Assembly (NCBI GenBank): GCA_016186395.1
Contig: JACPLU010000001.1
Location: 5,036 to 69,035, forward strand
Length of the DNA: 64,000 bases
Direction of reading: 5' to 3'
Source of the DNA: Parcubacteria group bacterium
GTDB lineage: Bacteria > Patescibacteriota > Minisyncoccia > 2-02-FULL-40-12
The notes below the pieces were generated by a model, which was not told where the DNA came from, did no database searches, and saw only the letters and a list, made by a program, of their open reading frames with translations. A program made the translations under genes and the position numbers. Positions 1,187 through 37,825 of this stretch are shown piece after piece. Every line of letters begins with the position of its first letter. Position 1 is the first letter of the stretch.

Positions 1187-1252
1187 TCTAATGACTAAGG
1201 TCTAAGGCAAATTGGTTTCTAGCTTTAGACTTTAGACTTTAGACTTTAGACT
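1187..1252. repeat. Family A intergenic hairpin repeat (GTCTAAAG...CTTTAGAC with tandem TAGACTTTAGAC units)
   Basis: Contains tctaatgactaagg...ctttagactttagactttagactttagac. Related copies occur at 13128, 14424, 24743, 27427, 33982 and 37771. Confidence 0.8.
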
Positions 1253-1255
1253 AGT

Positions 1256-1522
1256 TTGGTTCAAGTTTACCGAAAACCAAGAGAAACAATCCCAAGCCTA
1301 ATCAGGCGTTTTAGTCGTGCAGTTCAAACAAGTGGTGTTTTAGATCAGGCCAAGGCTAAAAGATCTAGTCGTCGTAAGCCGTCAGAAAGAGTTATCAAGC
1401 AAAGAGCGATTATGGCTTTTCATTTAAGAAAACTTAGAATACATCTTGAAAAGGTGGGTCAATATAGTGAAGAAAAATTTGAGATTGAAAAAAAGAAGTT
1501 GAAACAAAAACTCGGACTCTAA
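1256..1522 (+). CDS. rpsU: 30S ribosomal protein bS21
   Basis: LIRRFSRAVQTSGVL...RRKPSERVIKQRA matches the S21 pattern (ALRRFKR..EK.G.L....R.YEKP...RK). Basic protein of 88 aa; TTG start, so the exact start is uncertain. Confidence 0.7.
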   Translation: MVQVYRKPRETIPSLIRRFSRAVQTSGVLDQAKAKRSSRRKPSERVIKQRAIMAFHLRKLRIHLEKVGQYSEEKFEIEKKKLKQKLGL

Positions 1523-1542
1523 AGTGTAAATTTCAACTCTTA

Positions 1543-1666
1543 GAAAAATTATATCCTTTCAGCACGCAAATTTTCTCCAGCGGGAAATTTGCTAAGTGCA
1601 GCATTAGATTTTGTTCTTTCTAGAACAAACCAAGCAATCTAATGCCGCAATTACTTCAAGGATATA
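1543..1666 (+). other. Candidate structured RNA or complex attenuator: three nested hairpins closed by a 15-bp helix
   Basis: gaaaaattatatcctt (1543-1558) pairs with aaggatataatttttc (1651-1666). Internal hairpins are gcaaattt-N11-aaatttgc, gcattagatt...aatctaatgc and ttgttct-ttc-tagaacaa. Confidence 0.4.
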
Positions 1667-1682
1667 ATTTTTCTCCCCCATC

Positions 1683-2180
1683 TTGTTAAAAGAAAGAATT
1701 AAAAATGATGTGGTTCAGGCACTAAAGATGCATGACGAAAAAGGGCGGTTAGTTTTAGGTTCTTTGCTTGCCGTTATTCAAAATAAAGAGATAGAGAAAA
1801 GGAGTTTTGCCGTAAAGAAAAATCTTTTTAGTTCCCAAGAAGAGTTAGTAAAGGCGTCGGAGCTTTCTGACGATGACGTTATTCAAGTTATTCAATCTGA
1901 AGTTAAAAAACGGAAAGAAGCAGTTGAACTTTTTAGAAAAGGTAACAGAGATGAACTGGCTCAAAAAGAAGAAGATGAAATCATAATTTTATCTGGATAT
2001 TTGCCGGAACAACTAAACGAGGAAGAGTTGAAAGAAATAGTTAGAAATACGATTAATGAATTGGGTGCGAAGGATGTTAAAGAAATGGGTAGAGTAATAA
2101 ATACTGTTATGCAAAAAGTTAAAGGCAGGGCTGACGGTTCTATGGTTAGTAGGTTGGCTAAAGATTTATTGGTTTCATGA
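1683..2180 (+). CDS. GatB/YqeY-domain protein
   Basis: The C-terminal region (LPEQLNEEELKEIVRNTINELGAKDVKEMGRVINTVMQKVKGRADGSMVSRLAKDLL) is typical of the YqeY/GatB C-terminal domain. Confidence 0.8.
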   Translation: MLKERIKNDVVQALKMHDEKGRLVLGSLLAVIQNKEIEKRSFAVKKNLFSSQEELVKASELSDDDVIQVIQSEVKKRKEAVELFRKGNRDELAQKEEDEIIILSGYLPEQLNEEELKEIVRNTINELGAKDVKEMGRVINTVMQKVKGRADGSMVSRLAKDLLVS

Positions 2181-2665
2181 AGTCAAATTTTACTTTCAAT
2201 AATTTCACGAAAATTCGGTCCTTGAAAAAGGGCTTTTTTAATAAAGTGATAAGCAAGGTTTTAGAAGAACTTAAATTAGGAAGAGAAAATTTGGCTTTTA
2301 GTTTAAGTATTGTTGATTCAAAAAGAATGAAGGAACTCAACAGAAATTATAGAGGAAAAAACAAAACCACGGATGTGCTTTCGTTTTCTTATGTTAAGGA
2401 CGGAAAACTTTCTAATGCAGAATTGTTACGTTTTATCAAAAAAGAAAAAATTGTGGAACTCGGGGATATTTTTATTGATCCGTCGGTAGCAAAGAAACAA
2501 GCCCAGCAAGTTAAAAATGACGGCCATTCTTTAGAGTATGAATTTGCAATGTTAACAACTCATGGGCTCTTACATTTACTTGGTTATGATCACGAACGTT
2601 CTAAGAAGGACGAAAAGAGGGTGTATGATCTCCAAGCTAAAATTTTAAAGGGTTTGCACTTATAA
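2177..2665 (+). CDS. ybeY: rRNA maturation endoribonuclease YbeY
   Basis: HGLLHLLGYDHE zinc-binding motif (H..H..GYDH). Overlaps the upstream gene by 4 bp. Confidence 0.85.
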   Translation: MKSNFTFNNFTKIRSLKKGFFNKVISKVLEELKLGRENLAFSLSIVDSKRMKELNRNYRGKNKTTDVLSFSYVKDGKLSNAELLRFIKKEKIVELGDIFIDPSVAKKQAQQVKNDGHSLEYEFAMLTTHGLLHLLGYDHERSKKDEKRVYDLQAKILKGLHL

Positions 2666-2797
2666 TACATATTTTGTGATTTAGGTTTCATGTTTTACGT
2701 TCCATTTTCCCGCCTTATCCACCTTTAAATTTGTAAAATAGGGCCTCAATTGTTATTGTTAAATCAATAAATTATTCTATTTTTAAATTTTTAGTTT

Positions 2798-4045: not shown

Positions 4046-4071
4046 TTTCTTAAAACAAGGAAAACTAAAGA

Positions 4072-4098
4072 GGAACGGATTCAAGGTCCGTTTTTGTT
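4072..4098 (+). terminator. Rho-independent terminator after ftsA
   Basis: aacggat-tcaagg-tccgtt hairpin followed by a T-run (tccgtttttgtttg). Confidence 0.5.
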
Positions 4099-4214
4099 TG
4101 TTACTCCTTGCATTGTAAAGTCATGTATGATAATGAATATGAAAACAACGGTTTATGGATTTTGTAACATTTGGATCCAAATGTTAAGTGTTTCTTCATA
4201 AATCGATATAAATA

Positions 4215-5348: not shown

Positions 5349-5410
5349 TTGAAATTTGTGGATAATTACAAAAAAATGCCCAAGTGGCGTTTTTTTGTTG
5401 GTTTCTGGGT

Positions 5411-5449
5411 TTGGTGAATAATACTATTTCTCTTTCTTCGTCCCCCCCC
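5411..5449. mobile_element. Partial copy (left end only) of the MITE-like element, followed by a C9 homopolymer
   Basis: tttggtgaataatactatttctctttcttcg matches the left arm of the 14994 and 30098 elements, then ccccccccc. Confidence 0.55.
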
Positions 5450-5684
5450 CACCTAACTTTTGTGGAAACTTGATTAGTTTAACTACATAATTGTCTTAAT
5501 TAATATTTAGTAATTCTGTCTATTAAAATAAAAGTTAGGTGGGGGTTGACTTCTTATTCGGAGGGTTTAAAATAAGAATTAAAGTGACTCTTAGAATCTT
5601 AAATATTTATAAAAGTTAGAATTAGTTTTTGGCGCCTTCACGGCGCCGACACTGTTTTAACAAAAGAATTAATTTTTCTCAAAT

Positions 5685-8497
5685 ATGACAAATCAATTTG
5701 TTTTTCCTCAAATTTCGACAGACAATGATAAAGAAAAGTTGGTAACCAGTTCTAAGCAAGGAAACGGAAAGTCTTATGGTTTAAACTGGCCCAGGTTTTT
5801 TGGCGAAGGTGATCCCTATGACTTTATTCAATGGGAAAGAAGGACAGCAAAAATAACCAAATCTGATGGCAGTATAGTTTTTGAGCAGAAAGATATTGAG
5901 GCACCCTCTTTTTGGTCTCAAACGGCTACAGATATTGTTGCCTCAAAATATTTCAGGGGGAAGATTAACAGTCCGGAAAGAGAAACAAGTGTTAGGCAGA
6001 TGATTGATCGAGTTAGTATTACGATAGCTAATTGGGGAAAAGCCGAAGGAAGGTTTATAAGTGATCAGGATTACGAAAACTTTTTACAAGATTTGAAATT
6101 TTTGCTGATAAATCAATACGCGTCTTTTAACAGTCCTGTTTGGTTTAATGTGGGTGTTTATGAACGTCCTCAATGTTCAGCTTGTTTTATCTTATCTGTA
6201 AAAGACGATATGCAATCCATCATGGATTGGGTTCAGGATGAAGGCTGGATATTTAAGAACGGTTCTGGTTCTGGAGTCAATCTTTCTTCTTTGCGCTCTT
6301 CCAAAGAGCCTTTATCCAAAGGTGGTCATTCTTCTGGTCCAGTCTCTTTCATGAAGGCTGCTGACGGCATGGCTAACTCGATTCGTTCCGGTGGAACAAC
6401 TCGACGCGCTGCCAAAATGGTAATTCTAAATGCAGATCACCCCGATATCAAAGATTTTATTTATTCTAAAAAAATAATTGAGGACATGACTAAAGCTTTG
6501 GCTCGAGAAGGCTTTAAAGATTCAATTACCGCAGATCTTTTTGACCCTTATACTCTTTTGCCGTATCAAAATGCTAATAATTCTGTTCGGGTGACAAATG
6601 AGTTTATGCATGCAGTAAAAGAAAATCGGGATTGGAATTTAAAAGCTGTTACTTCGGGAGATGTGATTGAGAGGATGCCAGCGAAAGATATACTTAGATG
6701 GTGTGCAGAGGCCGCTTGGCACTCTGCCGATCCAGGAATGCAATATGACACGGTTATAAACGATTGGCATACGTGTCCCAATAGTGGAAGGATTAGCGCC
6801 TCAAATCCATGCTCTGAATACATGCATCTTGATAACAGCGCCTGTAACCTTGCCTCACTGAACCTTTTAAAGTTTTTGCGTGAAGATGGAACTTTTGACG
6901 TCAATACTTTTAAAAATGCCGTTGGAACAATTATTCTTGCTCAAGATATTTTAGTTGATAATTCATCTTATCCAACTGAAAAAATAACCGAGAACGCTAA
7001 GAACTATCGTGAGTTAGGACTGGGTTATGCAAATCTTGGAGCTTTACTTATGACATTGGGACTTCCATATGATTCTGATCAAGGTAGGGCGTTGGCTGGT
7101 AGCATCACATCTTTAATGTGTGGGGAGGCTTATAGGATGTCGGCTATTATGGCGTCAAAATCTGGCCCCTTTGGTGGTTATATGAAAAATGAAGGACCAA
7201 TGTTGCGTGTTATAGAGAAGCATCAAAAAGCAGCCGATAATTTGGTTGAAAATATTAGATCAGATGGTCTAATTAATGAAGAAGACCTAATTTCTAACAG
7301 TCAATCTGTTTGGTATGAAGCGTTGGAATTGGGTAAACAGTACGGATACCGCAATTCTCAAGTTACAGTGCTTGCTCCTACGGGTACGATTTCGTTTATG
7401 ATGGATTGTAAAACAACAGGAATTGAACCGGATCTTGCTTTGGTAAGTTATAAAAAACTGGTTGGCGGAGGAACAATAAAATTAGTAAATAACCAAGTGC
7501 CGTCAGCTTTAAGGCGGCTTGGTTATTCTGAAGAACAGGTAAAATTATTTCGGATCATCTCATAGAAAAGGATACCATAGAGGGAGCTCCCGGACTTAAA
7601 GGGGAAGATTTGGCAGTTTTTGATTGTTCATTTAAACCACAAAATGGTAAAAGAACAATCAATTATATGGGACATCTTAAAATGATGGCGGTTGCTCAGC
7701 CATTTATATCCGGGGCTATTTCTAAAACTGTTAATCTTCCAAGCGAGGCAACTGTAGAGGATATAGAGCAGGCATTTATTGATTCTTGGGAGTTGGGTCT
7801 TAAAGCAGTCGCTTTTTATAGAGATGGTTCAAAAACCATACAGCCGTTAAGTACGTCAAAAGAAGATAAATTAGTTGAGCACATTAACGGATATACGCGT
7901 ATAAAACTGCCAGATGAACGGCCTTCTATAACCCATAAATTTACAATTGGTGGTTATGAGGGCTACATAACAACAGGTCTTTATCCGGGTACTCAAAAGC
8001 CCGGGGAGACTTTTCTAGTTGCTGCGAAAGAAGGCAGTACCGTATCGGGGTTATTAGATACAATTGCAACTTTAATTTCTATGTGTTTACAGTCCGGAAT
8101 TCCACTTAAGACCTTGGTCAAAAAGTTTAAGGATTTGCGTTTTGAACCAGCTGGTTATACAAACAACCCGGAAGTTCCTTTGGCAAAATCAATTGTTGAC
8201 TATGTATTTCGATATCTGGGTACAAAGTTTTTAACTCCAGAAGATAAGGAAGAAGTCTTTGGACCGCCTCATGATTTTAACGCTTCTGAAAAGGATATGA
8301 GTGCGATTACTACGCTGGCCTCCATAAATAATGTTCAAGTTTCCTCGGATCCGCTTCTTTGGAATCCACCGCCTAGACTCGGCGAGGCTGGCAACGAAGC
8401 GAGTGCTCCTGTTTGTAACTGCGGTGCTTTAATGTTTAGAGCCGGTTCTTGTTATACTTGTCCTAACTGTTTTTCTACTACTGGGGTTTGCAATTAA
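5685..8497 (+). CDS. nrdJ: Class II (adenosylcobalamin-dependent) ribonucleotide reductase NrdJ, interrupted by a -1 frameshift near 7541-7546
   Basis: ORF 5685-7565 and ORF 7610-8497 both carry RNR motifs (NPCSEYMHLDNSACNLASLNL; VFDCSFK...AVAQPFISGAISKTVN; C-terminal CxxC...CxxC). Reading from 7541 in the second frame gives the continuous KIISDHLIEKDTIEGAPGLKGEDLAVFDCSF. Confidence 0.8.
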
Positions 8498-8582
8498 GGA
8501 CTTTGTCTAAATTTAAGCGAAGCGCAGAAAATTTAGATACAAAACCGGAGTAGGATTCAAAAAACAGAATGGTGTAAATTAA

Positions 8583-8610
8583 AAACTCCTAAAGGGGAGT
8601 TTTGTTTTTA
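8583..8610. terminator. Bidirectional rho-independent terminator between nrdJ and the convergent small ORF
   Basis: aactcc-taaagg-ggagtt hairpin flanked by A and T runs. Confidence 0.55.
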
Positions 8611-8623
8611 TTAGAACATTGGG

Positions 8624-13127: not shown

Positions 13128-13214
13128 TTAATGTCTAGTGACTAAAGTCTAGAGTCTAGGGTCTAAAGACTTTAAAAAATTTTGCTTTAGACTTTAGCCA
13201 TTAGACTTTAAGCC
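13128..13214. repeat. Family A hairpin repeat
   Basis: taatgtctagtgactaaag...gtctaaagac-tttaaaaaattttg-ctttagac tttagccattagactttaag. Confidence 0.8.
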
Positions 13215-13224: not shown

Positions 13225-13872
13225 TTGTTACTTTACCATTTTCATGATACTTTTACAAGCATACTTATGCTTGTAGTTTTATTTAAAATAATCGTTGTTT
13301 TGTTCTCGGTTGTTATTCACGAGGTTTCCCACGGCCTTATGGCATATAGATTAGGAGACCCGACGGCGAAAAGGTTAGGTCGTCTTACATTAAATCCTTT
13401 TCCTCATTTAGATTTATTTGGGTCAATTCTTTTGCCATTTCTATCCTTTATGTTTGGCGGTTTTGTCTTTGGATATGCAAAACCAGTCCCATATAATCCA
13501 TTATTCTTGAGGGATCAAAAATACGGACCAGCAAAGGTGGGTTTTTCTGGACCGGCGTCAAACTTAGTTTTGGCCGTAATATTTGGATTGATTTTAAGAT
13601 TCCTCCCGCCATTTTTATATCAAACGTCTATTCCCGAGCTTTTTACTTTTATCGTTTTTATAAATCTCGGCCTTGCTATATTTAATTTAATGCCAGTTCC
13701 TCCGCTAGATGGCCACTGGCTTTTGTTGTCGTTTTTGCCAGATAGATTTTATCGGCTTAAACAAATGTACTCTCAATACGGTTTATTATTGTTTTTTGTT
13801 TTTTTGTTCATCGTCTTTCCTTTAATCCTGCCGCTAGTTCAAATATTATTCAGGTTAATCGTGGGAGTGTAA
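13225..13872 (+). CDS. Site-2 protease family (peptidase M50) membrane metalloprotease
   Basis: HEVSHG zinc motif in a TM helix, and LNLMPVPPLDG (NxxPxxPLDG motif). Confidence 0.75.
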   Translation: MLLYHFHDTFTSILMLVVLFKIIVVLFSVVIHEVSHGLMAYRLGDPTAKRLGRLTLNPFPHLDLFGSILLPFLSFMFGGFVFGYAKPVPYNPLFLRDQKYGPAKVGFSGPASNLVLAVIFGLILRFLPPFLYQTSIPELFTFIVFINLGLAIFNLMPVPPLDGHWLLLSFLPDRFYRLKQMYSQYGLLLFFVFLFIVFPLILPLVQILFRLIVGV

Positions 13873-13991: not shown

Positions 13992-14408
13992 ATGCCGACA
14001 TTTAATCAACTTTTAAAAAAATCTAAAACTAGAAGAATTTCAAAGGCGAAAACAAAATCGCCCGCTTTATCATTTGGATTCAATACTTTAAAGAATAAAC
14101 CGAGTTTTTATCCAGCGCCGTTTAAAAGAGGGGTTTGTTTGCAAGTGAGAACAACAACGCCAAAAAAACCAAATTCAGCTTTACGTAAAATCGCCAGAGT
14201 GAGATTGACTAACGGAATGGAGGTTACTGCTTATATCCCTGGTGTGGGGCACAATCTTCAAGAACACTCGGTGGTTTTAATAAGAGGAGGCAGGGTTAAA
14301 GATTTACCCGGTGTTCGTTATCATATTGTTAGAGGAGTATACGACTCTGGAGGGGTTGAGGGTCGTAAACAACAAAGATCAAAGTACGGCGCAAAAAGAT
14401 TGAAATAA
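13992..14408 (+). CDS. rpsL: 30S ribosomal protein uS12
   Basis: [36 protein letters not shown]. Confidence 0.95.
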
Positions 14409-14423
14409 GTTTTTGTCTGGTGG

Positions 14424-14482
14424 CAAAAGTCTAAAGCAAAATTTTTTAAAGCCTTTAGACCTTAGTCTTTAGACTCTAGACG
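14424..14482. repeat. Family A hairpin repeat
   Basis: gtctaaagc-aaaattttttaaagc-ctttagac cttagtctttagactctagac. Confidence 0.8.
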
Positions 14483-14485: not shown

Positions 14486-14953
14486 TTGAGAAGAGGCCCA
14501 ATAACCAAAAAATTGTTAGAACCAGATTTAAAATATCAGAGTTCTTTGGTTACCCGTTTTATAAATTATGTAATGGATTCAGGTAGGAAGTCAGCTGCCA
14601 AAAAGATCGTTTATGGAGCCTTAGCTCACGCTGAAAAAAAAGTTAATAAACCTGCCCTAGAAATTTTAGATGCTGTTATTAAAAATGCCGGTCCGGAACA
14701 GGAACTACGCTCTCGGAGAGTCGGCGGCGCTAATTATCAGGTGCCTCATCCAGTAAACGCGGATAGAAGAGTAACTTTAGCGTATCGTTGGATTATCGCT
14801 GCGGCTCACTCTAAAAAAGGAAAACCAATGTCAGAAAAACTTGCTCAGGAGTTAATTGACGCCTTTAATAATACTGGAATCGCAGTCAAGAAAAAGACAG
14901 ACACACATAAAATGGCCGATGCGAATAAAGCTTTTGCTCATTTTGCGTGGTAG
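14486..14953 (+). CDS. rpsG: 30S ribosomal protein uS7
   Basis: S7 pattern (DSGRKSAAKKIVYGAL...RRVGGANYQVP). Confidence 0.95.
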   Translation: MRRGPITKKLLEPDLKYQSSLVTRFINYVMDSGRKSAAKKIVYGALAHAEKKVNKPALEILDAVIKNAGPEQELRSRRVGGANYQVPHPVNADRRVTLAYRWIIAAAHSKKGKPMSEKLAQELIDAFNNTGIAVKKKTDTHKMADANKAFAHFAW

Positions 14954-14993: not shown

Positions 14994-15198
14994 CTTGATA
15001 AATAATACTCTTTCTCTTTCTTCGCAAACCCCAGCGTGGTTTGCTCAGGGGTTGAGCTCTTTGCTCTTATCCAACTCTTTCTTTTGAAAGAGCTGGGTAA
15101 ACCATGCCCGTCCCGATTTCTGCTCCGCAGAATCGAGGATCCTCGATAGCATCGGGACTACGGGCTCAAAACCCGTTCAAGAGTATTATTCACCAAGT
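14994..15198. mobile_element. MITE-like element, copy 1 (about 205 bp; 19-bp TIR CTTGGTGAATAATACTCTT; palindromic core AATCGAGGATCCTCGATT; central hairpin cassette variant 1)
   Basis: Left end cttgataaataatactctt and right end aagagtattattcaccaag are inverted. Both arms are nearly identical to the inverted arms of the 30098-30317 copy. It is inserted between rpsG and fusA. Confidence 0.8.
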
Positions 15199-19450: not shown

Positions 19451-19454
19451 ATGG

Positions 19455-19565
19455 AATACAAATTTACAAATGATATGCGAATGCAACAAATAATATTATG
19501 TATCAAATAGTAAGCATGAATTATTCGTACGTGCGCATTCGTAGCGCGCTATTAGCATACTGTTC
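19455..19565. repeat. Family D leader-like repeat (diverged copy) upstream of rpsJ
   Basis: caaatttacaaatgatatgcgaatgcaac and attcgtacgtgcgcattcgtagcgcg resemble the 24023 and 26152 copies. Confidence 0.5.
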
Positions 19566-19573
19566 TTTAGAAA

Positions 19574-19909: not shown

Positions 19910-19914
19910 ATAAC

Positions 19915-19995
19915 GTTCTGTGAGCCCGCCTATGGGCGAGACGAGCGGCTAGCGGAATTTATCCCGAGGAGCATAAGCGACGAGGGACGGATTCT
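19915..19995 (+). other. Anomalously GC-rich segment immediately after rpsJ
   Basis: gagcccgcctatgggcgagacgagcggctagcgg...cccgaggagcataagcgacgagggacgg, in an otherwise AT-rich context. Confidence 0.35.
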
Positions 19996-20124
19996 TTAAA
20001 AAATGGAAAACGAACCAAAAACTGAAAAATATTTTCTCAACAAAGACGAAAAATAGAGATTCTTGGCTCAATTAAAGTTGCAGCATTAGAGATACAAAAA
20101 AGGGCGGCAGAGCTGATTGACTTA

Positions 20125-20277
20125 ATGCAACAAGCAGAAGACAATATTGATAAGAATGGGGAAATAACTATGACCGAAGATCTAAAAGAAGGTGTTCTTA
20201 GAGGAATCTATAATATAAAAAGGAGGCAAGAAGTTTTTTCTCGGATTGAGCATATAGAAGAGTTTAAGGATAAATAA
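20125..20277 (+). CDS. Possible small ORF (50 aa from the ATG; open from 20032) in the rpsJ-rplC spacer
   Basis: MQQAEDNIDKNGEITMTEDLKEGVLRGIYNIKRRQEVFSRIEHIEEFKDK. Not in the supplied track. Coding status uncertain. Confidence 0.25.
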   Translation: MQQAEDNIDKNGEITMTEDLKEGVLRGIYNIKRRQEVFSRIEHIEEFKDK

Positions 20278-20292
20278 AATTATTCCCTTCCT

Positions 20293-20350
20293 CTTGCCAT
20301 AATTCATGGTTCGAGCTTCAAGCTTCATGTTTCATGAATAGGTGGCAAGC
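20293..20350. repeat. Family B repeat (TTCATGTTTCA/GTTTCAAG units) inside a 7-bp hairpin cttgcca...tggcaag
   Basis: cttgccataattcatggttcgagcttcaagcttcatgtttcatgaataggtggcaag. Confidence 0.75.
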
Positions 20351-20477
20351 GATAAGGTAGTAATGCCTTAGTAAATGAAAATTATGGTTTTACCGTTACT
20401 AAAGCCAGACTAAAATTAAAGTATACAAAGATTTAGCGTTTTTATTATGCCCAGCTAAATCTGGGTTTTTTGTTGAA

Positions 20478-21113
20478 ATGACTAAGTTTATTCTAGGTAA
20501 AAAAATCGGTATGTCGCAAGTATTTAAAGAAGACGGAGCGGTTATTCCGGTTACTTTAGTTGAAGCCGGACCAGTTACAGTCACCAAGCTTAGGACAAAA
20601 GAAAAAGACGGTTATGAAGCGATCCAGATAGGATCGCAAAAATCAAAAATCAAAAATCCCCGGCCTCGCCAAGCGAAGCGGGGCGGGCAAAAATCAAAAT
20701 TTGAGAACCTGAAAGAATTTAAACCCAAGTTTCAAGATTCAAGTTTCAAGATTCAAGACTTCACTCTTGGTCAAAAAATTGATGTATCTATTTTTGAAGA
20801 AGGAGAAGTTGTAAAAATTAGCGGAGTTTCTAAGGGTAAGGGTTTTCAAGGAGGAGTGAAACGTCATGGATTTCACGGTATGCCGGCAAGTCATGGTCAT
20901 AAGCATGTTACTCGTACTCCAGGATCAATCGGGCAGAGGTTTCCACAGCACACTCTTAAAGGAACAAGAATGGCTGGTCATATGGGTCATGAAAGGGTAA
21001 CTGTTGAGGGGTTAAAAGTTGTTAAGGTAGACAAGGAAAATAATATTTTATTGATAAAAGGAGCGATTCCGGGTAGACGGGGAACTCTAGTTGAGATTGT
21101 TAATGATAATTAA
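20478..21113 (+). CDS. rplC: 50S ribosomal protein uL3 (contains an in-frame family B-like tandem unit at 20728-20760)
   Basis: GKKIGMSQVF...VTKGKGFQG...HGSIGQRFPQ. The internal aagtttcaagattcaagtttcaagattcaagac encodes KFQDSSFKIQDF. Confidence 0.95.
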   Translation: MTKFILGKKIGMSQVFKEDGAVIPVTLVEAGPVTVTKLRTKEKDGYEAIQIGSQKSKIKNPRPRQAKRGGQKSKFENLKEFKPKFQDSSFKIQDFTLGQKIDVSIFEEGEVVKISGVSKGKGFQGGVKRHGFHGMPASHGHKHVTRTPGSIGQRFPQHTLKGTRMAGHMGHERVTVEGLKVVKVDKENNILLIKGAIPGRRGTLVEIVNDN

Positions 21114-21786: not shown

Positions 21787-22206
21787 ATGGCACTATTTAA
21801 AAAGTCTAAAAAAGAAAAAGAAGAAAAAATGAAAATCGAAGAAAGCGATAAGTTTTTAGATAACGGCAAAAAGTCTAAAGATAACGATGGCGCAAAAACC
21901 TTTTTGCCTAAAGGCAAAGACTCAAAGTCTTATTTATTAATAAAAATACCTCATACTACAGAAAAAGCGGTATTTTTAAAACAAAGTAGAAATCAGTACA
22001 CGTTTGAAGTCTTTCCTAATGCAAATAAGAATGAGATTAAAAAAGCAGTAGAAAGATTGTATGAAGTTAAAGTAAAGAAAGTTATGGTAACCAGAACTTC
22101 AGGAAAGGTTCGTCAGCTCGGTCGTTTTACAGGTTTTAAGTCCGGTATTAAGAAAGCTGTAGTTGTTCTTGCGAAGGGTCATAAAATAGATATTTTATCA
22201 ACATGA
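21787..22206 (+). CDS. rplW: 50S ribosomal protein uL23 with a lysine-rich N-terminal extension
   Basis: YTFEVFPNANKNEIKKAVERLYEVKVKKV. Confidence 0.9.
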   Translation: MALFKKSKKEKEEKMKIEESDKFLDNGKKSKDNDGAKTFLPKGKDSKSYLLIKIPHTTEKAVFLKQSRNQYTFEVFPNANKNEIKKAVERLYEVKVKKVMVTRTSGKVRQLGRFTGFKSGIKKAVVVLAKGHKIDILST

Positions 22207-23387: not shown

Positions 23388-23455
23388 AAACGTGAAACCT
23401 GAATCATGAAACTTTAAATTTAAGAATGTTTCAAGTTATAGGTTTCAAGTTGTAG
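23388..23455. repeat. Family B repeat
   Basis: aaacgtgaaacctgaatcatgaaactttaaatttaagaatgtttcaagttataggtttcaagttg. Confidence 0.75.
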
Positions 23456-23457
23456 AA

Positions 23458-24021: not shown

Positions 24022-24022
24022 A

Positions 24023-24117
24023 ATCGATTCAAATATACAAATTGATGCGAATGATACGAATCAGACTAGAGACAAATGAATGCTATTCGTATAATTAGTA
24101 TATTTGTATCGCAGAAT
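24023..24117. repeat. Family D leader-like repeat (about 90 bp), copy 2
   Basis: aaaatcgattcaaatatacaaattgatgcgaatgatacgaatc...gtataattagtatatttgtatcgcag. Its first 44 bp match 26152-26196 at 41/44 bp. Confidence 0.8.
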
Positions 24118-24747
24118 TTGGCACAAAAAAATTCACCCATCGCAAATAGGCTTGGAATTATCGAGGATTGGAGATCTCGGTGGTTTTCTATTAAAAACTA
24201 CAAATCCTATCTTCATGATGATTTGAGAATCCGTGAATATTTAGACAAGCGGTTACGGGGTTTTTCTGTGGACAAGATAGAAATTGAAAGAAGCCCGGGC
24301 CAGTTAATGTTGCGTCTATGGACTGCTAGGCCGGGTTTGATTATTGGTCGTGGGGGTACTGGTATAGAAGAGTTGAAAAGCGAGTTGGAGTCAATTATTG
24401 AAGATAAAACGAGAGTTAGACTCGAAGTTCAAGAAATAAAAAAACCGACGATGTCTGCCGCTATTGTAGCCGAACAGATTGCCGAACAGATTGAAAGAAG
24501 GGTGCCATTTAGAAGAACGATGAAACAGGCCTTCGCAAAAATTATTGCTAATCCTGAAGTTAAGGGAGCCAAAATTCAAATTTCTGGAAGGCTGGACGGG
24601 AGCGAGATTGCCAGAGAAGAACATACTGAATCAGGCCTACTTCCTTTACAGACATTGAGGGAAAAAATTGATTATGCTCAAAATACTGCTTTTACAACTT
24701 ATGGCACCGTAGGAATCAAGGTGTGGATCTATAAACCAGGCGACTAA
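24076..24747 (+). CDS. rpsC: 30S ribosomal protein uS3 (the track start lies inside repeat D; probable true start is TTG at 24118)
   Basis: IANRLGIIEDWRSRWF...KH-domain GRGG...TMKQAFA...GRLDGSEIAR. The first 14 codons are encoded by the repeat. Confidence 0.9.
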   Translation: MNAIRIISIFVSQNLAQKNSPIANRLGIIEDWRSRWFSIKNYKSYLHDDLRIREYLDKRLRGFSVDKIEIERSPGQLMLRLWTARPGLIIGRGGTGIEELKSELESIIEDKTRVRLEVQEIKKPTMSAAIVAEQIAEQIERRVPFRRTMKQAFAKIIANPEVKGAKIQISGRLDGSEIAREEHTESGLLPLQTLREKIDYAQNTAFTTYGTVGIKVWIYKPGD

Positions 24748-24832
24748 AGACCAAAGTCTAAAGCTCAGTGATTAAAGACCAAAGCCAGAAATTTAATTAG
24801 CCTTAGCCTTTAGTCATTAAACTTTAGACAAG
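24743..24832. repeat. Family A hairpin repeat (the rpsC stop codon lies inside it)
   Basis: gactaaagaccaaagtctaaag...ctttagtcattaaactttagac. Confidence 0.8.
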
Positions 24833-24838: not shown

Positions 24839-25243
24839 ATGCTTCAACCCAAAAGATTAAAACATCGAAAGGTATTTCGTCGGCACATAGCGCCGGTTGC
24901 TTCGCGTGGTAATTATATTTCTTTTGGATCCTTTGGGTTAAAGACAGAAGAGTCGTATTGGCTTAAAGCAAATCAGATTGAGGCGGCTAGAAAAAGTATA
25001 ACAAGATATTTAGAAAAGGGTGGTAAGTTATGGATTAGGGTTTTTCCCCATGTTCCTCAAACTGCTAAAAGTGCAGAAGTTGGAATGGGCGGAGGTTCAG
25101 GACCAATAGTTGGTTTTTCGGCTCCAGTTGAAGCAGGAAGAATTTTATTTGAGATAGATGGAGTCGACGAAAAGGTTGCCAGAGAAGCTTTCAGACTGGC
25201 TAGCAGTAAGCTGCCGGTAAAAACAAGATTTATAAAAAAGTAA
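24839..25243 (+). CDS. rplP: 50S ribosomal protein uL16
   Basis: MLQPKRLKHRKVFRR...G. Confidence 0.95.
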   Translation: MLQPKRLKHRKVFRRHIAPVASRGNYISFGSFGLKTEESYWLKANQIEAARKSITRYLEKGGKLWIRVFPHVPQTAKSAEVGMGGGSGPIVGFSAPVEAGRILFEIDGVDEKVAREAFRLASSKLPVKTRFIKK

Positions 25244-25711: not shown

Positions 25712-25800
25712 AAATTTTAAACATGAAACTTGAAATTTGAAGCATTTCTAAATGTTCCATGATTCACGCTTCATGTTACATGATCCTTGATTCAACTTCG
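25712..25800. repeat. Family B repeat
   Basis: aaacatgaaacttgaaatttgaagc...gttccatgattcacgcttcatgttacatgatcc. Confidence 0.75.
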
Positions 25801-26152: not shown

Positions 26153-26236
26153 ACCGATTCAAATATACGAATTGATGCTAATGATACGAATCTTATTAGT
26201 ATAATTAGTATGCATTAGTATATTGGTATCGCGGAA
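26152..26236. repeat. Family D leader-like repeat, copy 3
   Basis: aaaccgattcaaatatacgaattgatgctaatgatacgaatc...attagtataattagtatgcattagtatattggtatcgcgg. Confidence 0.8.
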
Positions 26237-27148: not shown

Positions 27149-27214
27149 AGCATGTAGCATGTAACCCGAATCATTTAAAAAGTTTTAGGTTTCAGGTTTC
27201 AGGTTTTACGATTC
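27146..27214. repeat. Family B repeat supplying the rplE stop (TCATGA) and the rpsZ start (TTCATGG)
   Basis: aatcatgaagcatgtagcatgtaacc...gtttcaggtttcaggttttacgattcatgg. Confidence 0.75.
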
Positions 27215-27400
27215 ATGGCAAAAAAATCACTAATAGTTAGATTAAAAAAACCAAGAAAATTTCAGGTTCGTAGTAGGGGCCATTGTTTTATTTGTGGACG
27301 GACCCATGGATATTTGAGTAAATTTGGTCTTTGTAGGATACATTTTAGAGAATACGCTAATAGGGGTTTGATTCCAGGAGTAAAGAAGGCATCATGGTGA
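27215..27400 (+). CDS. rpsZ: 30S ribosomal protein uS14, zinc-binding type Z
   Basis: 61 aa, [23 protein letters not shown]. Confidence 0.9.
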
Positions 27401-27426: not shown

Positions 27427-27477
27427 GACTAGGGACTAGGGACTAAAGCCTTAGACTATAGACATTAGACTTTAGAC
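27427..27477. repeat. Family A hairpin repeat
   Basis: gactagggactagggactaaagccttagactatagacattagactttagac. Confidence 0.75.
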
Positions 27478-27483: not shown

Positions 27484-27885
27484 ATGACTGACCCAATTTC
27501 GGATTTTTTTATAAGAATTAAGAATGCTTATGCTGCCAAAAAGGAGCGCGTATTGGTGCCGTTCTCAAATTTAAAGTTTGAAATTGCCAGCGAATTAGAA
27601 AGAGGGGGCTTTGTCCAGGAAATTGGAAAAAGAAAGAAAAAAGTTTTAAAGTCTAACCATTTATATCTGGACATAAAGTTAAAATATAAAGACAATGGCC
27701 CGGCGATGGAAGGATTAAGAATTTTTAGTTCTCCTTCAAGGCGTATCTATATAAAGTCTAAAGACATTAGACCAGTCAGGTCCGGTTATGGGATGGCTAT
27801 TTTATCTACACCAAAGGGTATAATGAGTGAAAAAGCAGCCAGAAAAGAGAATGTTGGCGGAGAACTGATTGCAGAAGTGTGGTAA
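27484..27885 (+). CDS. rpsH: 30S ribosomal protein uS8
   Basis: MTDPISDFFIRIKNA...GGELIAEVW. Confidence 0.95.
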   Translation: MTDPISDFFIRIKNAYAAKKERVLVPFSNLKFEIASELERGGFVQEIGKRKKKVLKSNHLYLDIKLKYKDNGPAMEGLRIFSSPSRRIYIKSKDIRPVRSGYGMAILSTPKGIMSEKAARKENVGGELIAEVW

Positions 27886-27889
27886 TAAA

Positions 27890-27950
27890 GTATTAAAAAT
27901 TAAACATCAAACCTTATTTTTGATTTTTGATTTTTGAATTTTAATTTTGT
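27890..27950. repeat. Family C repeat (TTTTGA/TCAAAA units)
   Basis: catcaaaccttatttttgatttttgatttttgaattttaattttgtttga. Confidence 0.7.
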
Positions 27951-30100: not shown

Positions 30101-30317
30101 AAGTGGGCTTGGTGAATAATACTCTTGAACGGGTTTTGAGCCCGTAGTCCCGATGCTATCGAGGATCCTCGATTCTGCGGAGCAGAAATCGGGACGGGCA
30201 TGGTTTTCTCTGTCTGGATTTACAGTCCAGATAGAGAAAGAGCGAAGGGCTCAACCCCTGAGCAAACCACGCTGGGGTTTGCGAAGAAAGAGAAAGAGTA
30301 TTATTCACCAAGCTCAC
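30098..30317. mobile_element. MITE-like element, copy 2 (inverted relative to copy 1; central cassette variant 2), inserted between rplO and secY
   Basis: cttggtgaataatactctt...aagagtattattcaccaag. The arms are the reverse complement of copy 1's arms. The central 45 bp differ and form an 11-bp hairpin (ctctatctgga/tccagacagag). Confidence 0.85.
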
Positions 30318-31630: not shown

Positions 31631-31707
31631 CTTTCTTTGAATTTTTTGGTTGAAATATTTTTCTAAATTTGATATTTTAAGATCGGTTCATTAAAATAAA
31701 AGGAGAG

Positions 31708-33146: not shown

Positions 33147-33204
33147 AGGCCTTTTTTTTATTCTGGTTTTTGATATTATTAAATTAATAATCTTGGGATT
33201 CAAA

Positions 33205-33268
33205 ATGCATAACAAGTTTCAGATTTTATGATCCATGTTTCACGTTTTGCGTTCCATGTTTCAAGAAT
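33205..33268. repeat. Family B repeat overlapping the start of the GT2 gene
   Basis: atgatccatgtttcacgttttgcgttccatgtttcaag encodes the first 12 codons (MIHVSRFAFHVS). Confidence 0.7.
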
Positions 33269-33986
33269 TAAACTTTCAGTCATTGTTCCTGCCTTTAATG
33301 AATCAGAAAGAATAATCCCGACTTTAGATTCTCTAAATAATTATTTGTCTAAACAGTCTTATGATTGGGAAGTTTTGGTAGTAAACGATGGTTCGACTGA
33401 CAATACTGCTGAAGTGGTTAGGAGTTTCATGTTTCATGTTTCAGGTTTCAGGTTGTTGGATAACAAAGAAAATCATGGCAAGGGTTGGGTAGTAAGGCAG
33501 GGAATGCTAGCGGCAGAAGGAGATTTTAGATTATTTATGGATGCTGATAACGCAACCAGAATTGAAACTGTTGAAAAATTCTGGCCCCTTTTTAATCAAG
33601 GTTATGATGTAGTAATTGCTTCAATTGGTATTAAGGGAGCGGACGTAGCTGGTACAGAGAAATTTTATCGGCGTATCTTTGGAAAACTGGGTAATCTTTG
33701 GATTCAATTTTGGGTTACACCCGGGATATTGGATACACAAAGAGGATTTAAAATGTTTTCAAAAGTGGCAGCCGGTAAAATTTTTCCAAAGCTTAAAATT
33801 CTAAAGTGGGGATTTGATGTAGAGGTTTTGGCTTTGGCAAGAAAATTTACTTTTAAGATAAAAGAGGTTCCAATAAAATGGGTTAATGATCCGAAGAGTC
33901 ACGTTAAGTTAACTGCTTATATTCAAGTTTTACTTGAGGTTTTGAAAATAAGATGGAATCTATGGACAAACAAATATAATGTCTAA
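33228..33986 (+). CDS. Family 2 glycosyltransferase (polyprenyl-phosphate sugar synthase-like); contains a second in-frame family B unit at 33424-33456
   Basis: LSVIVPAFNESERI...VLVVNDGSTDNT, DxD-like MDADN. The internal gtttcatgtttcatgtttcaggtttcagg encodes SFMFHVSGF. Confidence 0.8.
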   Translation: MIHVSRFAFHVSRIKLSVIVPAFNESERIIPTLDSLNNYLSKQSYDWEVLVVNDGSTDNTAEVVRSFMFHVSGFRLLDNKENHGKGWVVRQGMLAAEGDFRLFMDADNATRIETVEKFWPLFNQGYDVVIASIGIKGADVAGTEKFYRRIFGKLGNLWIQFWVTPGILDTQRGFKMFSKVAAGKIFPKLKILKWGFDVEVLALARKFTFKIKEVPIKWVNDPKSHVKLTAYIQVLLEVLKIRWNLWTNKYNV

Positions 33987-34060
33987 TGACTAAAGACCAA
34001 AGACTAAAGCTTTTTCAATCAAGCTCTAGACTCTAGATTTTTGACTTTAGTCTTTAGATC
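33982..34060. repeat. Family A hairpin repeat (supplies the GT2 stop codon and the 5' end of the galT ORF)
   Basis: taatgactaaagaccaaagactaaag...ctctagactctagatttttgactttagtctttagatc. Confidence 0.8.
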
Positions 34061-35051: not shown

Positions 35052-35059
35052 TTTATAAA

Positions 35060-35117
35060 CTTGGCGAATAATACTCTTTCTCTTTCTTCGCAAAACCTGT
35101 TCAAGAGTATTATTCCG
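35060..35117. mobile_element. Deletion-derivative (mini) copy of the MITE, with both termini fused
   Basis: cttggcgaataatactctttctctttcttcgcaaaacc joined to tgttcaagagtattattcc. Confidence 0.7.
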
Positions 35118-35131
35118 CCATGCTTTAATTT

Positions 35132-35752
35132 ATGATTGGCCTTATTTCTTTAGTCAGTAGTTTTGCCCTTGGTTTTATTGAAAAAACCGGATATACCGGT
35201 GTTTTTGTCTTGTCATTGCTAGAAAGTGCCGCTATACCGGTCCCGTCAGAAATAGTAGTTCCGTTTTCCGGGTTTTTAGTTTCGCTGGGTAGATTTAATT
35301 TTTGGGTAATTGTAATTTTAACAAGCCTAGCTAATCTGTCCGGTTCAATAATTCTATTTTTTATAGGGAAAAGCGGTGGTCGGTGGATTTTAGAACATTA
35401 TGGTAAGTATATTTTTGTGCATCGTGACGATCTTGAGAAAAGCGATAAATGGTTTAAAAAGTATGGGTCAAAAGCAGTATTTTTTGGAAGGTTGTTGCCG
35501 GTAGTTAGAACTTTTATATCTTTGCCAGCTGGAATAGCAGAAATGAATTTTTATAAATTCAGTCTTTTTACCTTTTTAGGTGCCTTGCCTTGGAATTTTG
35601 TTTTAGCCTTGATAGGATTAAAAGCAGGAGAAAACTGGAATATCTTACATGAGTATTTTAGAAAATTAGATATTTTTATTTTATTAACCATTTTGGGTTT
35701 GATAGTTTTTTATTTATTTAAACATTTAAAAAAACAAAAAAGATATGTCTAA
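35132..35752 (+). CDS. DedA family membrane protein
   Basis: DedA signature region VFFGRLLPVVRTFISLPAGIAEMNFYKF and the TM topology. Confidence 0.8.
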   Translation: MIGLISLVSSFALGFIEKTGYTGVFVLSLLESAAIPVPSEIVVPFSGFLVSLGRFNFWVIVILTSLANLSGSIILFFIGKSGGRWILEHYGKYIFVHRDDLEKSDKWFKKYGSKAVFFGRLLPVVRTFISLPAGIAEMNFYKFSLFTFLGALPWNFVLALIGLKAGENWNILHEYFRKLDIFILLTILGLIVFYLFKHLKKQKRYV

Positions 35753-35933
35753 AAAACTGATCGTTGCAAACTGTCCCGAAAAACTTCGCGAGAGAAAATC
35801 GAGCGACTAGTTTTTTCGAGATTCCGTTTTGTTTGCCATAATCAGATATAATATTTGGCGAAGTTAACGGGATCATGAGATTGTACTTGCTCGCCTCATT
35901 GGCTCGCAAACAATTTCGGGAGAAAATTAACCT

Positions 35934-36728
35934 ATGCAAAAAAGACTAATAGTTGCTAACTGGAAGATGAATCCGCAAACTTCAACCGAGGCTAAGGAAC
36001 TTTTGGTTTCGGTTTTAAGCGATGCGTCGGATTTTAAAAATATAGAATTAGTCATTTGTCCCCCATTTGTTTATTTCTCGTCTATTTCGGCGATGATTTA
36101 TGATTTAAGTTCCAAGTTTCAAGTTTCCCTCGGTGCCCAGAATATGCATTGGGAACAAAAAGGCGCATTTACCGGAGAGATATCGGCTCAAATGCTAAAA
36201 GAGTTCGGAGTTGAATACGTAGTAGAAGGACACAGCGAGCGAAGATGGATTATGGGAGAAACTGACGAAATGATAAATAAAAAAATAAAAACTGCATTAA
36301 AATCCGGATTAATACCAATATTGGCAGTTGGTGAGAAAGAACGTAATAATTTTGATTCCTCGGGGAGGCATATTAATACTGCCGATGATGTGGTTATAGA
36401 TCAACTCACCAGAGCTTTAGATGGCGTACCTGTTTCAAAAATAAAAGATGTGGTAATTGCTTATGAACCAGTTTGGGCCATAGGTACTGGTTTAGCTGAT
36501 AATCCTGACGATGCCTTATCTGTATCGCTTCTTATAAGAAAAGTTATTTCAAAAATGACCGATGATAAAACAGCCAGGGCAATAAAAATTTTATACGGCG
36601 GAAGCGTTAACTCAAAAAATATTGCTGAATTTTTAAAACAAGACGGTATAGACGGTGCTTTGGTCGGTGGTGCAAGTATTGATAAAGATGAGTTTACTAG
36701 AATTTTAGAAATTGTTTCTTCTTTATAA
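35934..36728 (+). CDS. tpiA: Triosephosphate isomerase
   Basis: IVANWKMN, EGHSERR, AYEPVWAIGTG, GGAS. Confidence 0.95.
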   Translation: MQKRLIVANWKMNPQTSTEAKELLVSVLSDASDFKNIELVICPPFVYFSSISAMIYDLSSKFQVSLGAQNMHWEQKGAFTGEISAQMLKEFGVEYVVEGHSERRWIMGETDEMINKKIKTALKSGLIPILAVGEKERNNFDSSGRHINTADDVVIDQLTRALDGVPVSKIKDVVIAYEPVWAIGTGLADNPDDALSVSLLIRKVISKMTDDKTARAIKILYGGSVNSKNIAEFLKQDGIDGALVGGASIDKDEFTRILEIVSSL

Positions 36729-36731
36729 AAA

Positions 36732-37766
36732 ATGAAGTTAATATCAGAGATTGAAGATCTAAATAAGAAAAAAGTTCTTTTAAGGGTTGATTTTAATGTT
36801 CCTGTTGAAAATGGCAGATTAATGGAAATCTATAGACTAGAGGCCCATCGGCTAACTATTGAGTATTTGGTTAAGAATGGAAGTATTATTGTTTTATTAG
36901 CTCATTTGGGAGATGACGAATCTGAAAGTTTTCTGAATTTAGTCGGACAGTTTTCGGATTTTTATAAAAAAGATATAGAATTTATTCCAGAAACAGGAGA
37001 CATCGAAAATAAAATAAAAGATGCTTTACCAGGCAGTATTTTTTTATTGGACAATATTCGCAAATGGCCTCTTAAAAATGTACTCGACACTCCGTCTGAT
37101 GGTAAGATTTTAATTCTTGGAGGAGCTAAAATCTCAACTAAGGCCCCGGTAATTAAAGGTTTTATTGAACATTCTGACGCTATCTTAATTGGTGGGGCGG
37201 TTGCAAATCAATTTTTCAAGTTTAAGGGAGTAAATGTCGGTTCTTCAAGAGTCGAAAAGATTGCTTTAGAGGACCTCGGATTTGATATTGGTCATCCCCG
37301 TATTTTATTGCCACAAGATATGGTGATTTCTTCAGACATGACCGGTGTTGGTTCAAAGGAAGTAGTACCAGTTCAAAATATTGCCGATGATCAAAAAATC
37401 TTGGACATCGGGCCGGAAACAATTAAAAGATTTTCTAAGTTAATCAATGATTCTAAACTTATCGTATGGAACGGCCCTATGGGTTTAGCAGAGGTGGGTG
37501 CTTTTTCTGAAGGAACAAAACAGATTGTTTCTGCAATTTTTTCATCTTCCTCTCGTAAGGTAGTGGGTGGCGGTGATACAATAGCCTTTTTAGAAAAAGA
37601 AAGTCTGCTTGATAAATTTAGTGGTTTCGACAAGTCCTTCGATTCTGAAGTCCCCAGGACTGAAGGGCTCACCACAAGTTTTGTTTCTACCGGCGGCGGA
37701 GCGATGTTGGAGTTTTTGGCTGGAAATCAGTTGCCAGGTTTGGTTGCTTTGGGGTATTATCAATAG
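36732..37766 (+). CDS. pgk: Phosphoglycerate kinase (short form)
   Basis: VLLRVDFNVP...LLAHLG, GGGA...G in the C-terminal domain. Confidence 0.8.
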   Translation: MKLISEIEDLNKKKVLLRVDFNVPVENGRLMEIYRLEAHRLTIEYLVKNGSIIVLLAHLGDDESESFLNLVGQFSDFYKKDIEFIPETGDIENKIKDALPGSIFLLDNIRKWPLKNVLDTPSDGKILILGGAKISTKAPVIKGFIEHSDAILIGGAVANQFFKFKGVNVGSSRVEKIALEDLGFDIGHPRILLPQDMVISSDMTGVGSKEVVPVQNIADDQKILDIGPETIKRFSKLINDSKLIVWNGPMGLAEVGAFSEGTKQIVSAIFSSSSRKVVGGGDTIAFLEKESLLDKFSGFDKSFDSEVPRTEGLTTSFVSTGGGAMLEFLAGNQLPGLVALGYYQ

Positions 37767-37770
37767 TCAA

Positions 37771-37825
37771 ATGTCTAATGTCCAAGGCTCAAAGCATTAG
37801 TCTTTGGTCTTTAGACTTTAGTCAA
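37771..37825. repeat. Family A hairpin repeat
   Basis: atgtctaatgtccaaggctcaaagcattagtctttggtctttagactttagtc. The track ORF start at 37778 lies inside it. Confidence 0.75.

Follow-up and report, generated by a model that had tools for sequence, protein, structure and literature searches.

Family A, a set of eight short inverted-repeat modules in a 64,000-nucleotide stretch of DNA from a Parcubacteria group bacterium (contig JACPLU010000001.1, positions 5,036 to 69,035; hereafter the window), probably consists of dispersed, slippage-prone palindromic short-tandem-repeat modules that are largely selfish or neutral residents of a streamlined genome; I place the probability of this reading at roughly 0.58. 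An earlier sequence-only reading had noticed seven of the copies, described them as hairpins at gene junctions that supply the stop codons of the upstream genes, and proposed two readings, functional punctuation or a miniature repeat of a very invasive kind. All seven copies lie where that reading put them and are far above chance, so the observation is real, but it is over-generalised. Its second proposal is supported by a terminal signature shared by six of the seven modules, by an additional copy that sits in frame within lepA, and by the finding, in two genomes, that coding copies use the same unit as intergenic ones.

Results

Read in heptad register, all family-A modules follow one plan: left-arm heptads, a variable loop, then right-arm heptads. 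The left arm has three to six units with the consensus G-W-C-T-A-A-A and the right arm four or five with the consensus C-T-T-T-A-G-W; among the 31 left and 33 right units from which these were built, G1 is present in 31/31 left units and T4 in 33/33 right units. The loop (1-18 nt) is not conserved in sequence, and the modules measure 51-88 nt. The window contains 18 occurrences of CTTTAGAC where 2.6 are expected by chance, and 49 matches to TAGACTTTAGAC at two mismatches or fewer where 6.3 are expected, counts that no shuffle reached. The exact 8-mer pair GTCTAAAG/CTTTAGAC is limited to sites 2, 3 and 4, and the other sites carry variant units. At the outer ends of the arms, six of the seven modules bear the decamer GTCTAATGAC, which contains an AAT variant unit, or its complement GTCATTAGAC (13 matches against 2.75 expected), and GTCTAATGAC...GTCATTAGAC thus amounts to a terminal inverted repeat common to the modules. 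The seven intergenic copies are as follows (dG, folding free energy in kcal/mol):

Module 1, 1186-1251, HIT/rpsU (S21-like) spacer: left arm 1186-1206 (GTCTAAT GACTAAG GTCTAAG), loop 1207-1222, right arm 1223-1251 (CTTTAGA x4 + C); HIT stop TAA at 1176-1178 outside the repeat, downstream TTG start at 1256; dG -25.4, z -4.1
Module 2, 13133-13212, between the divergent genes for L28 (12916-13116, minus strand) and an M50 peptidase (13225-13872, plus strand): left arm 13133-13167 (5 units), A/T loop, right arm 13185-13212 (4 units); dG -37.4, z -6.2
Module 3, 14415-14481, rpsL/rpsG spacer: left arm 14415-14435 (GTCTGGT GGCAAAA GTCTAAA), loop, right arm 14453-14481; rpsL stop at 14406-14408 outside the repeat, rpsG TTG start at 14486; dG -18.9, z -1.6, marginal
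Module 4, 24742-24829, rpsC/rplP spacer: left arm 24742-24783 (6 units), loop, right arm 24801-24829; rpsC stop TAA at 24745-24747 within the first unit, GACTAAA, rplP ATG at 24839; dG -19.9 sense, -35.9 antisense
Module 5, 27427-27477, rpsZ/rpsH spacer: left arm 27427-27447 (GACTAGG GACTAGG GACTAAA), almost no loop, right arm 27449-27477; rpsZ stop at 27398-27400 outside the repeat, rpsH ATG at 27484; dG -8.6, weak
Module 6, 33981-34058, GT2/galT-like spacer: left arm 33981-34008, loop, right arm 34024-34058; GT2 stop TAA at 33984-33986 within the first unit, GTCTAAT; dG -22.1 sense, -30.3 antisense
Module 7, 37773-37823, pgk/DHH-phosphoesterase spacer: left arm 37773-37793, right arm 37795-37823; pgk stop TAG at 37764-37766 in a degenerate unit just 5', likely downstream ATG at 37831; dG -16.1, z -4.0

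Family-A modules are therefore intergenic in seven of eight cases, the eighth being the lepA copy. Six of the eight occupy co-directional stop-to-start spacers and fill them almost entirely. Module 2 is not at the 3' end of a gene, as it sits between the starts of two divergent genes. An inverted pair able to form a hairpin had been claimed for each site; the sense RNA folds are significant for modules 1, 2, 4, 6 and 7 (dG -16 to -37 kcal/mol, z -3.1 to -6.2), whereas the fold of module 3 is marginal, being matched by 14/200 shuffles, and module 5 folds weakly, its left units GACTAGG not being complementary to the right arm. Other occurrences of family-A 8-mers were set aside: those within rpsH (27756-27772) belong to its normal coding sequence, which has no insertion when compared with the related locus L083, and the single matches at 21873, 33034, 40525 and 41035 are at chance level.

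The repeat supplies the upstream stop codon in only three of the seven cases (TAA of rpsC, TAA of GT2 and, in its degenerate unit, TAG of pgk); HIT, rpsL and rpsZ are not terminated by the repeat because their stops lie upstream of it. Arithmetic accounts for these stops. The left unit carries TAA and the right unit TAG, and since a stop-containing unit of 7 nt is not a multiple of 3, a stop falls in every frame within three units. Six of the seven intergenic modules carry a stop in each of the six frames, compared with 28% of random 70-mers that have the composition of intergenic DNA, and a module landing at or just inside a gene end would therefore terminate the frame within 21 nt. S3 of the window ends VWIYK-PGD*, and its relatives have 3-10 residues after VWIYK.

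The eighth module, missed by the sequence-only reading, lies in frame within lepA and is followed by a palindrome:

Module 8, 44415-44488, + strand, in frame within the lepA open reading frame (ORF) 44215-46098: left arm 44415-44443 (GCCTAAA GACGAAA GACTAAA GACTAAA), right arm 44460-44488 (CGTTAGT CACTTGA CCTTAGA CGTTGGT)
Palindrome, 44491-44512, + strand, at the 3' edge of the lepA insertion: perfect 10-nt arms, GATTCAGAAT-TT-ATTCTGAATC

This module of ~74 nt lengthens by ~23 residues the beta-hairpin that lies between motifs G2 and G3. Residues 69-94 of the LepA query align with chain residues 69-71 of solved LepA/EF4 structures, and the AlphaFold model draws the segment as a loop of low pLDDT that links strands 61-66 and 95-102 of the G domain, which is itself modelled with confidence. 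There are no stops in the lepA frame and three in each of the two other forward frames; the would-be in-frame TAA and TAG are replaced by GAA and TTG. The left half of the palindrome (codons DSE) is the exact reverse complement of the conserved ILNL codons. An equivalent palindrome, with arms of 15 nt, stands at the lepA edge in loci L102 and L103, and the motif SDS/SGS..YILNLI recurs in many LepA homologues. Such a reverse complement is the footprint expected of intrastrand template switching, which is a plausible origin, or means of upkeep, of complementary arms.

Among retrieved LepA homologues in which both motifs are present, the spacer from RGITIK to DTPGH spans 16-20 residues in 51 and 21-61 residues in 39, and many of the longest spacers are repetitive sequences in two halves. 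The insertion DNA of three other genomes of the Candidate Phyla Radiation (CPR) consists of heptad arrays built from other units (lag-7 identity 0.46-0.59), with sequences unrelated to module 8. Judged from these comparisons, this one LepA site is an insertion hot spot across Patescibacteria. In L101, the lepA unit AAAATCC recurs in intergenic modules of the same genome, and orthologous insertion sites in different genomes carry different units. One unit shared by coding and intergenic copies within a genome, with other units at the orthologous sites elsewhere, is the pattern expected of within-genome copying or homogenisation.

In all three of the other CPR genomes examined, lepA is called as two adjacent ORFs: L101 (4751-6671), L102 (71-1735) and L103 (568-2453), with gaps of 40, 45 and 14 nt, respectively. 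The break in L101 coincides with an AAATATC heptad hairpin bearing TGA TAA stops. No full-length LepA is present among the best 120 matches.

The window holds at least three heptad families of inverted-arm design, of which family A is one. Tandem arrays with period 7 number 18, compared with 0-1 for each of the remaining periods between 4 and 12 and none in shuffled sequence; Tandem Repeats Finder also returns rows with period 7. Identity in intergenic DNA rises to 0.312, 0.307 and 0.298 at lags 7, 14 and 21, over a baseline of ~0.272; coding DNA has only period 3. The family-B unit is common to more than 10 loci, and its 13-mer GTTTCANGTTTCA has 20 matches at one mismatch or fewer where 0.77 are expected. 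The arrays of these families are:

Family B (CATGAAA / GTTTCAN), spacer modules: 769-830, 2666-2720, 20310-20336, 23388-23457, 25712-25786, 27149-27214 and 33216-33263, upstream of HIT and in the spacers ybeY/ftsA, rpsS/rplV, rpsQ/rplN, rplE/rpsZ and map/GT2
Family C (CAAAAAT / ATTTTTG): 27886-27950, 46305-46417 and 52590-52662, at rpsH/rplF, upstream of a DivIC-like gene and at ftsE/ftsX
Families B and C, in-frame arrays in variable coding loops: rplC 20637-20658 and 20726-20758; GT2 33424-33454; tpiA 36093-36127; GT4 42198-42232

Units of family B occur in variable loops of L3, TIM and GT2, and their CATG overlaps the ATG start of GT2 (33228, inside an array). The L3 loop after LKEF carries heptad arrays in three genomes with three different units, those of the relatives being AAACCTG x5 (L083, 5436-5471) and AATCAGC x4 (L092, 6219-6249).

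The junctions of the str/S10/spc operons had been described as normally only a few nucleotides long and here replaced by hairpin modules, and the comparison bears this out: the median in the window is 72.5 nt, against a median spacer of ~13 nt in eight Firmicutes loci. At least 45 nt separate the genes at 18/26 junctions of the window, the remainder measuring -4 to 11 nt, a range usual for coupled cistrons, and at 8% of the Firmicutes ones. The negative control was a set of Erysipelotrichaceae loci (L2 ~60% identity). Period-7 arrays occur at 2.8 per 10 kb in the window, 1-3 in distant Parcubacteria contigs and 0.02 in Firmicutes ribosomal protein loci (1.43 Mb), which is a ~100-fold enrichment of the window over the Firmicutes loci.

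S3 of the window is identical to a protein annotated in a metagenome-assembled genome of the Parcubacteria group; the next relatives by S3 have 96% and 70% identity. Distant Parcubacteria contigs have a like architecture with other units and with periods of 7-9:

L083: units AGCCGTA (period 7), CATAAAGTT (period 9) and TGCGAATA (period 8)
L086, L087 and L090: period-8 arms at S19/L22 and S3/L16
L092: arms of period 7-8

Expansion affects 19/23 junctions in L083, whereas the operons of L088, L091 and L092 are compact (median junctions of 2-10 nt). Occupied junctions also flip between genomes: rplC/rplD measures 3 nt in the window and 145 nt in L083, and rpsQ/rplN 75 nt in the window and 1 nt in L083. 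Junction occupancy is not conserved between related genomes, and the positional conservation that the sequence-only reading proposed to look for at orthologous junctions is not found.

Discussion

What, then, accounts for hairpin modules at so many junctions? A serious though unlikely alternative is that they are RNA punctuation under selection, with stem-loops that serve as processing sites for RNase III (or another nuclease) or as barriers to 3'-exonucleases. In a genome largely devoid of Shine-Dalgarno (SD) sequences, they would give the parts of an operon different stabilities and shield the translation of neighbouring cistrons from one another. In E. coli, upstream mRNA is stabilised by repetitive extragenic palindromic (REP) sequences and bacterial interspersed mosaic elements (BIMEs). 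The filling of co-directional spacers by six of eight copies, with right arms that end 4-9 nt before start codons lacking SD motifs, fits such a role, as do the stable and significant folds, the rarity of SD motifs in the window and the convergence of unrelated unit families, in several genomes, on inverted arrays at ribosomal protein junctions. However, a shared generating mechanism would predict such convergence equally well, and the occupied junctions differ among relatives, some of which have none. One copy lies in a divergent promoter region and another in coding sequence. Selected mRNA hairpins should also fold better in the sense strand, G·U pairs being strand-specific, yet sense and antisense folds of 16 modules of families A, B and C did not differ (sense better in 10/16; mean z -3.22 against -3.20; Wilcoxon p 0.30 and 0.67); the antisense fold is by far the better one in modules 4 and 6, and modules 3 and 5 are weak. 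It is very improbable, too, that the modules are intrinsic terminators or strong pause sites subdividing the operons. Stable hairpins do stand directly after stop codons, but their stems are AU-rich, no module is followed by a T-run, and a terminator scan, whose total hits are at chance level, reports none of them; moreover, terminators at 18/26 junctions of essential operons would be incompatible with balanced synthesis of ribosomal proteins. Promoter-like matches in the window are likewise at chance level, and at the Rfam gathering threshold the window yields RNase P RNA and tRNAs and no repeat family. Given strand symmetry, the lack of terminators and the lack of positional conservation, a selected RNA role has no positive support, and the functional punctuation suggested by the sequence-only reading goes unsupported for these reasons and for the copies in the divergent promoter region and in lepA. 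A role in stability or processing is possible. The stem-loops, being co-transcribed, are likely to affect decay, processing and translational coupling as side effects open to co-option.

A different functional proposal, to which I give little credence, is that the T-rich heptads of the right arm form an mRNA platform for a Csp-like or S1-like protein, bound one per heptamer and controlling SD-independent initiation, a model already put forward for the TAACTGA repeats of Beggiatoaceae. The right units of families A, B and C do share a TTT core (CTTTAGA, GTTTCAN, ATTTTTG) and end a few nucleotides before start codons; CspB of B. subtilis is reported to bind direct repeats of heptamers, with one protein on each and T-rich sequence preferred (PMC4679880, PMC7704496); and the TAACTGA repeats of Beggiatoaceae likewise lie within ribosomal protein operons, before starts without ribosome-binding sites (RBSs). 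But a fixed 7-nt footprint is not general, since relatives have periods of 8 and 9 as well as units that are not rich in T (AGCCGTA, TGCGAATA). The arrays here, moreover, are always inverted pairs, in which the right arm would be tied up by the left, in contrast to the direct repeats of Beggiatoa. The window ORFs tested gave no cold-shock-domain gene, and the scarcity of SD motifs extends over the whole window and is not specific to the positions after modules. Upstream of 42 starts in the window SD-like motifs are rare, with a clear GGAGG only before murB and a few AAGG or AGGA, and on this ground I rejected SD loss as a module-specific trait. Pure in-situ microsatellites, arising by independent slippage on chance seeds with no copying between loci, are a still more doubtful source of the modules. 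They would accommodate the unit numbers and loops that differ at every site and the locus-specific L3 units of L083 and L092, and heptamer simple sequence repeats (SSRs) are over-represented in many bacteria, possibly through polymerase slippage (PMC4692102). Against this stand eight loci with one unit plus its terminal AAT variant, and family B likewise at more than 10 loci, for the same unit is very unlikely to have arisen separately at unrelated places; and the lepA copy arrived as a two-armed module of ~70 nt, in frame.

The reading of family A as dispersed, largely selfish or neutral modules can be set out as a sequence of events. The copies descend from a common template, as shown by the terminal inverted signature that they share, by one unit at eight unrelated loci and by the use of one unit in coding and intergenic copies of the same genome. 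After arrival, the arms may grow and shrink by replication slippage in 7-nt steps, which would account for the differences in unit number and in loop and for the signal at lags 7, 14 and 21, while their complementarity may be kept by intrastrand template switching, of which the lepA edge would be a footprint. Persistence is confined to tolerated sites, namely intercistronic spacers, a divergent promoter region and protein surface loops (lepA for family A; L3, TIM and GT2 for family B). As simple arithmetic shows, a module at a gene end takes over termination at a cost of few C-terminal residues, and an intragenic copy survives only if its in-frame stops are lost. Finally, the co-transcribed stem-loops, lacking U-tails, would at most modulate mRNA decay or processing, and the modules may uncouple translation of adjacent cistrons as REP/BIME elements do.

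Several observations weigh against this reading. No transposase-like or RAYT-like (REP-associated tyrosine transposase) domain was found in ~50 ORFs of the window, and no target-site duplications are visible flanking the modules. The L3-loop units of L083 and L092 do not occur elsewhere in their ~20 kb loci and are therefore locus-specific, so some arrays may arise purely in situ. Independent Logan contigs with S3 and EF-G are 100% identical to the window, and the strand-symmetry test, with 16 modules only, rests on a small sample. Colonisation of 18/26 ribosomal protein junctions could reflect positive selection rather than tolerance, as could the retention of a hairpin-type insertion at the LepA site across deep CPR lineages.

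Known repeat classes offer partial parallels. The short tandemly repeated repetitive sequences (STRRs) of cyanobacteria and other heptameric SSRs (GGGGAYT in Nostoc, GGGAATC in Xanthomonas) are intergenic and of unknown function (PMC4692102). Like the modules, they consist of tandem 7-nt units, fall into several families per genome and occupy intergenic sites, including intercistronic ones within operons; some inverted pairs of the STRR type can form stem-loops, and their length and sequence vary between close relatives. In the window, however, the two-arm inversion is the rule and not the exception, the phylum is another one, there are in-frame coding copies, relatives have periods of 8-9, and the units are A/T-rich and stop-containing and do not form G-quadruplexes. 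The units themselves (GWCTAAA/CTTTAGW, GTTTCAN, CAAAAAT) differ from STRR1-3, GGGGAYT, GGGAATC and TAACTGA, so the likeness is one of class only and not of homology. REPINs are short extragenic inverted doublets with non-autonomous replicative dispersal and several families per genome (Bertels and Rainey, 2011, PMC3116915). The modules resemble them as inverted doublets with a spacer that are predicted to form a hairpin in single-stranded DNA or mRNA (folds significant here in 5/7), but a REPIN arm is a single REP of ~20-25 nt, whereas here it is three to six tandem 7-nt units in variable number; REPINs are tied to RAYT genes, of which none was found among ~50 ORFs of the window, and are extragenic, whereas one copy here lies in lepA. 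With miniature inverted-repeat transposable elements, six of the seven modules share terminal inverted repeats at the outer ends, but they have no target-site duplications, no fixed length (51-88 nt) and no parent insertion sequence in the window.

The Rickettsia palindromic elements (RPEs) lie in frame in unrelated housekeeping genes at fold-compatible positions of a reduced genome (PMC10969869), and the lepA copy resembles them in being in frame, in a housekeeping ORF and at a structurally permissive site. RPEs, however, are ~100-150 bp long, with a conserved peptide and no short-period tandem structure, whereas the modules measure ~74 nt in lepA and are mostly intergenic. The TAACTGA repeats of Beggiatoaceae occur in 2-6 copies a few nucleotides before starts without an RBS, including internal sites of ribosomal protein operons (MacGregor, 2015, PMC4679880). 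They too are heptamer arrays of patchy phylogenetic distribution, suspected of mobility by no known mechanism, but they use a single direct unit (one indirect set among 170), in contrast to the paired inverted arrays and several families of the window. The modules are thus best classed as a palindromic short-period tandem-repeat type with features of each known class, at least one defining feature of each being absent. The literature searched gave no account of such repeats in CPR/Patescibacteria, but the search was limited and novelty is thus not proven.

One candidate for a viral vector of the unit was rejected: L105 (IMGVR_UViG_3300016457_000520) has (TTAGACT)x5 at 561-760 but belongs to an unrelated, GC-richer genome. 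There, (TTAGACT)x5 is followed by a GC hairpin and then by long (AAGTCTG/TCATCTG)n arrays of near-complementary unit, a similar inverted heptad design.

CPR genomes are among the most streamlined, yet 18/26 junctions of the most highly conserved operons are expanded here and a universally conserved translation factor carries an in-frame copy. If confirmed genome-wide, this would mean that hairpin repeats, whether selfish or driven by slippage, can flourish even where genome reduction is strong; it would provide a concrete source of lineage-specific protein insertions and split genes in CPR, and a natural system for the spread of palindromic repeats without an obvious transposase. More tentatively, a Patescibacteria-wide class of self-propagating palindromic modules with units of 7-9 nt might be a major force in genome and proteome evolution, filling spacers, donating stops and starts, renewing insertions in LepA and L3, perhaps being co-opted as insulators for SD-less translation, and moving by a transposase-free hairpin or template switch. 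For annotation, it should be borne in mind that gene ends and starts can be repeat-derived, and for assembly that contigs may break at repeats.

Other features of the window

Initiation in this genome appears to be largely SD-independent, and TTG and GTG starts are frequent among ribosomal protein genes. Besides the heptad families, longer non-heptad palindromes of the form GAATAATACTCTT...AAGAGTATTATTC (7 matches against 0.26 expected) form very stable hairpins, and the inserts of different sizes between their arms suggest nested insertions. A further family with units GCGAAT/ACGAAT and a period of ~8-10 can be likened to the period-8 TGCGAATA modules of L083, and a unit family of this type may be shared across genomes.

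Non-heptad palindromes: 5416-5428, 15000-15191, 30114-30306 and 35066-35115, at rpsG/fusA, rplO/secY and elsewhere
GCGAAT/ACGAAT family, window: 19451-19573, 24022-24117 and 26153-26236, at tuf/rpsJ, rplV/rpsC and rplN/rplX
TGCGAATA modules, L083: 1794-1896, 6638-6732, 9869-10000 and 11973-12072

The rpsJ/rplC spacer (19910-20477) is unusually long at 568 nt, has strong predicted structure and may contain a small RNA or ORF in addition to the family-B array at 20310-20336. The four ends of Logan contigs L001 and L104 lie at 15170, 17494, 21360 and 26223, and at least three of them (15170, 17494 and 26223) fall in intergenic repeat or hairpin regions; this suggests that multi-copy repeats break short-read assemblies.

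The region 61965-63399 (1.4 kb) is without a long ORF. Two overlapping tRNA-Thr(tgt) genes are called by ARAGORN (50475-50547 and 50540-50617), and Rfam backs the first only. An RNase P RNA of ~400 nt lies at 39148-39548 (102.7 bits, against an Rfam gathering threshold of 100), with an RNase H / RVT_3-like ORF (38710-39141) directly upstream. Two ORFs 44 nt apart, 5685-7565 and 7610-8497, together encode a split class II ribonucleotide reductase; the second starts with the end of the barrel domain, followed by a TSCPD domain.

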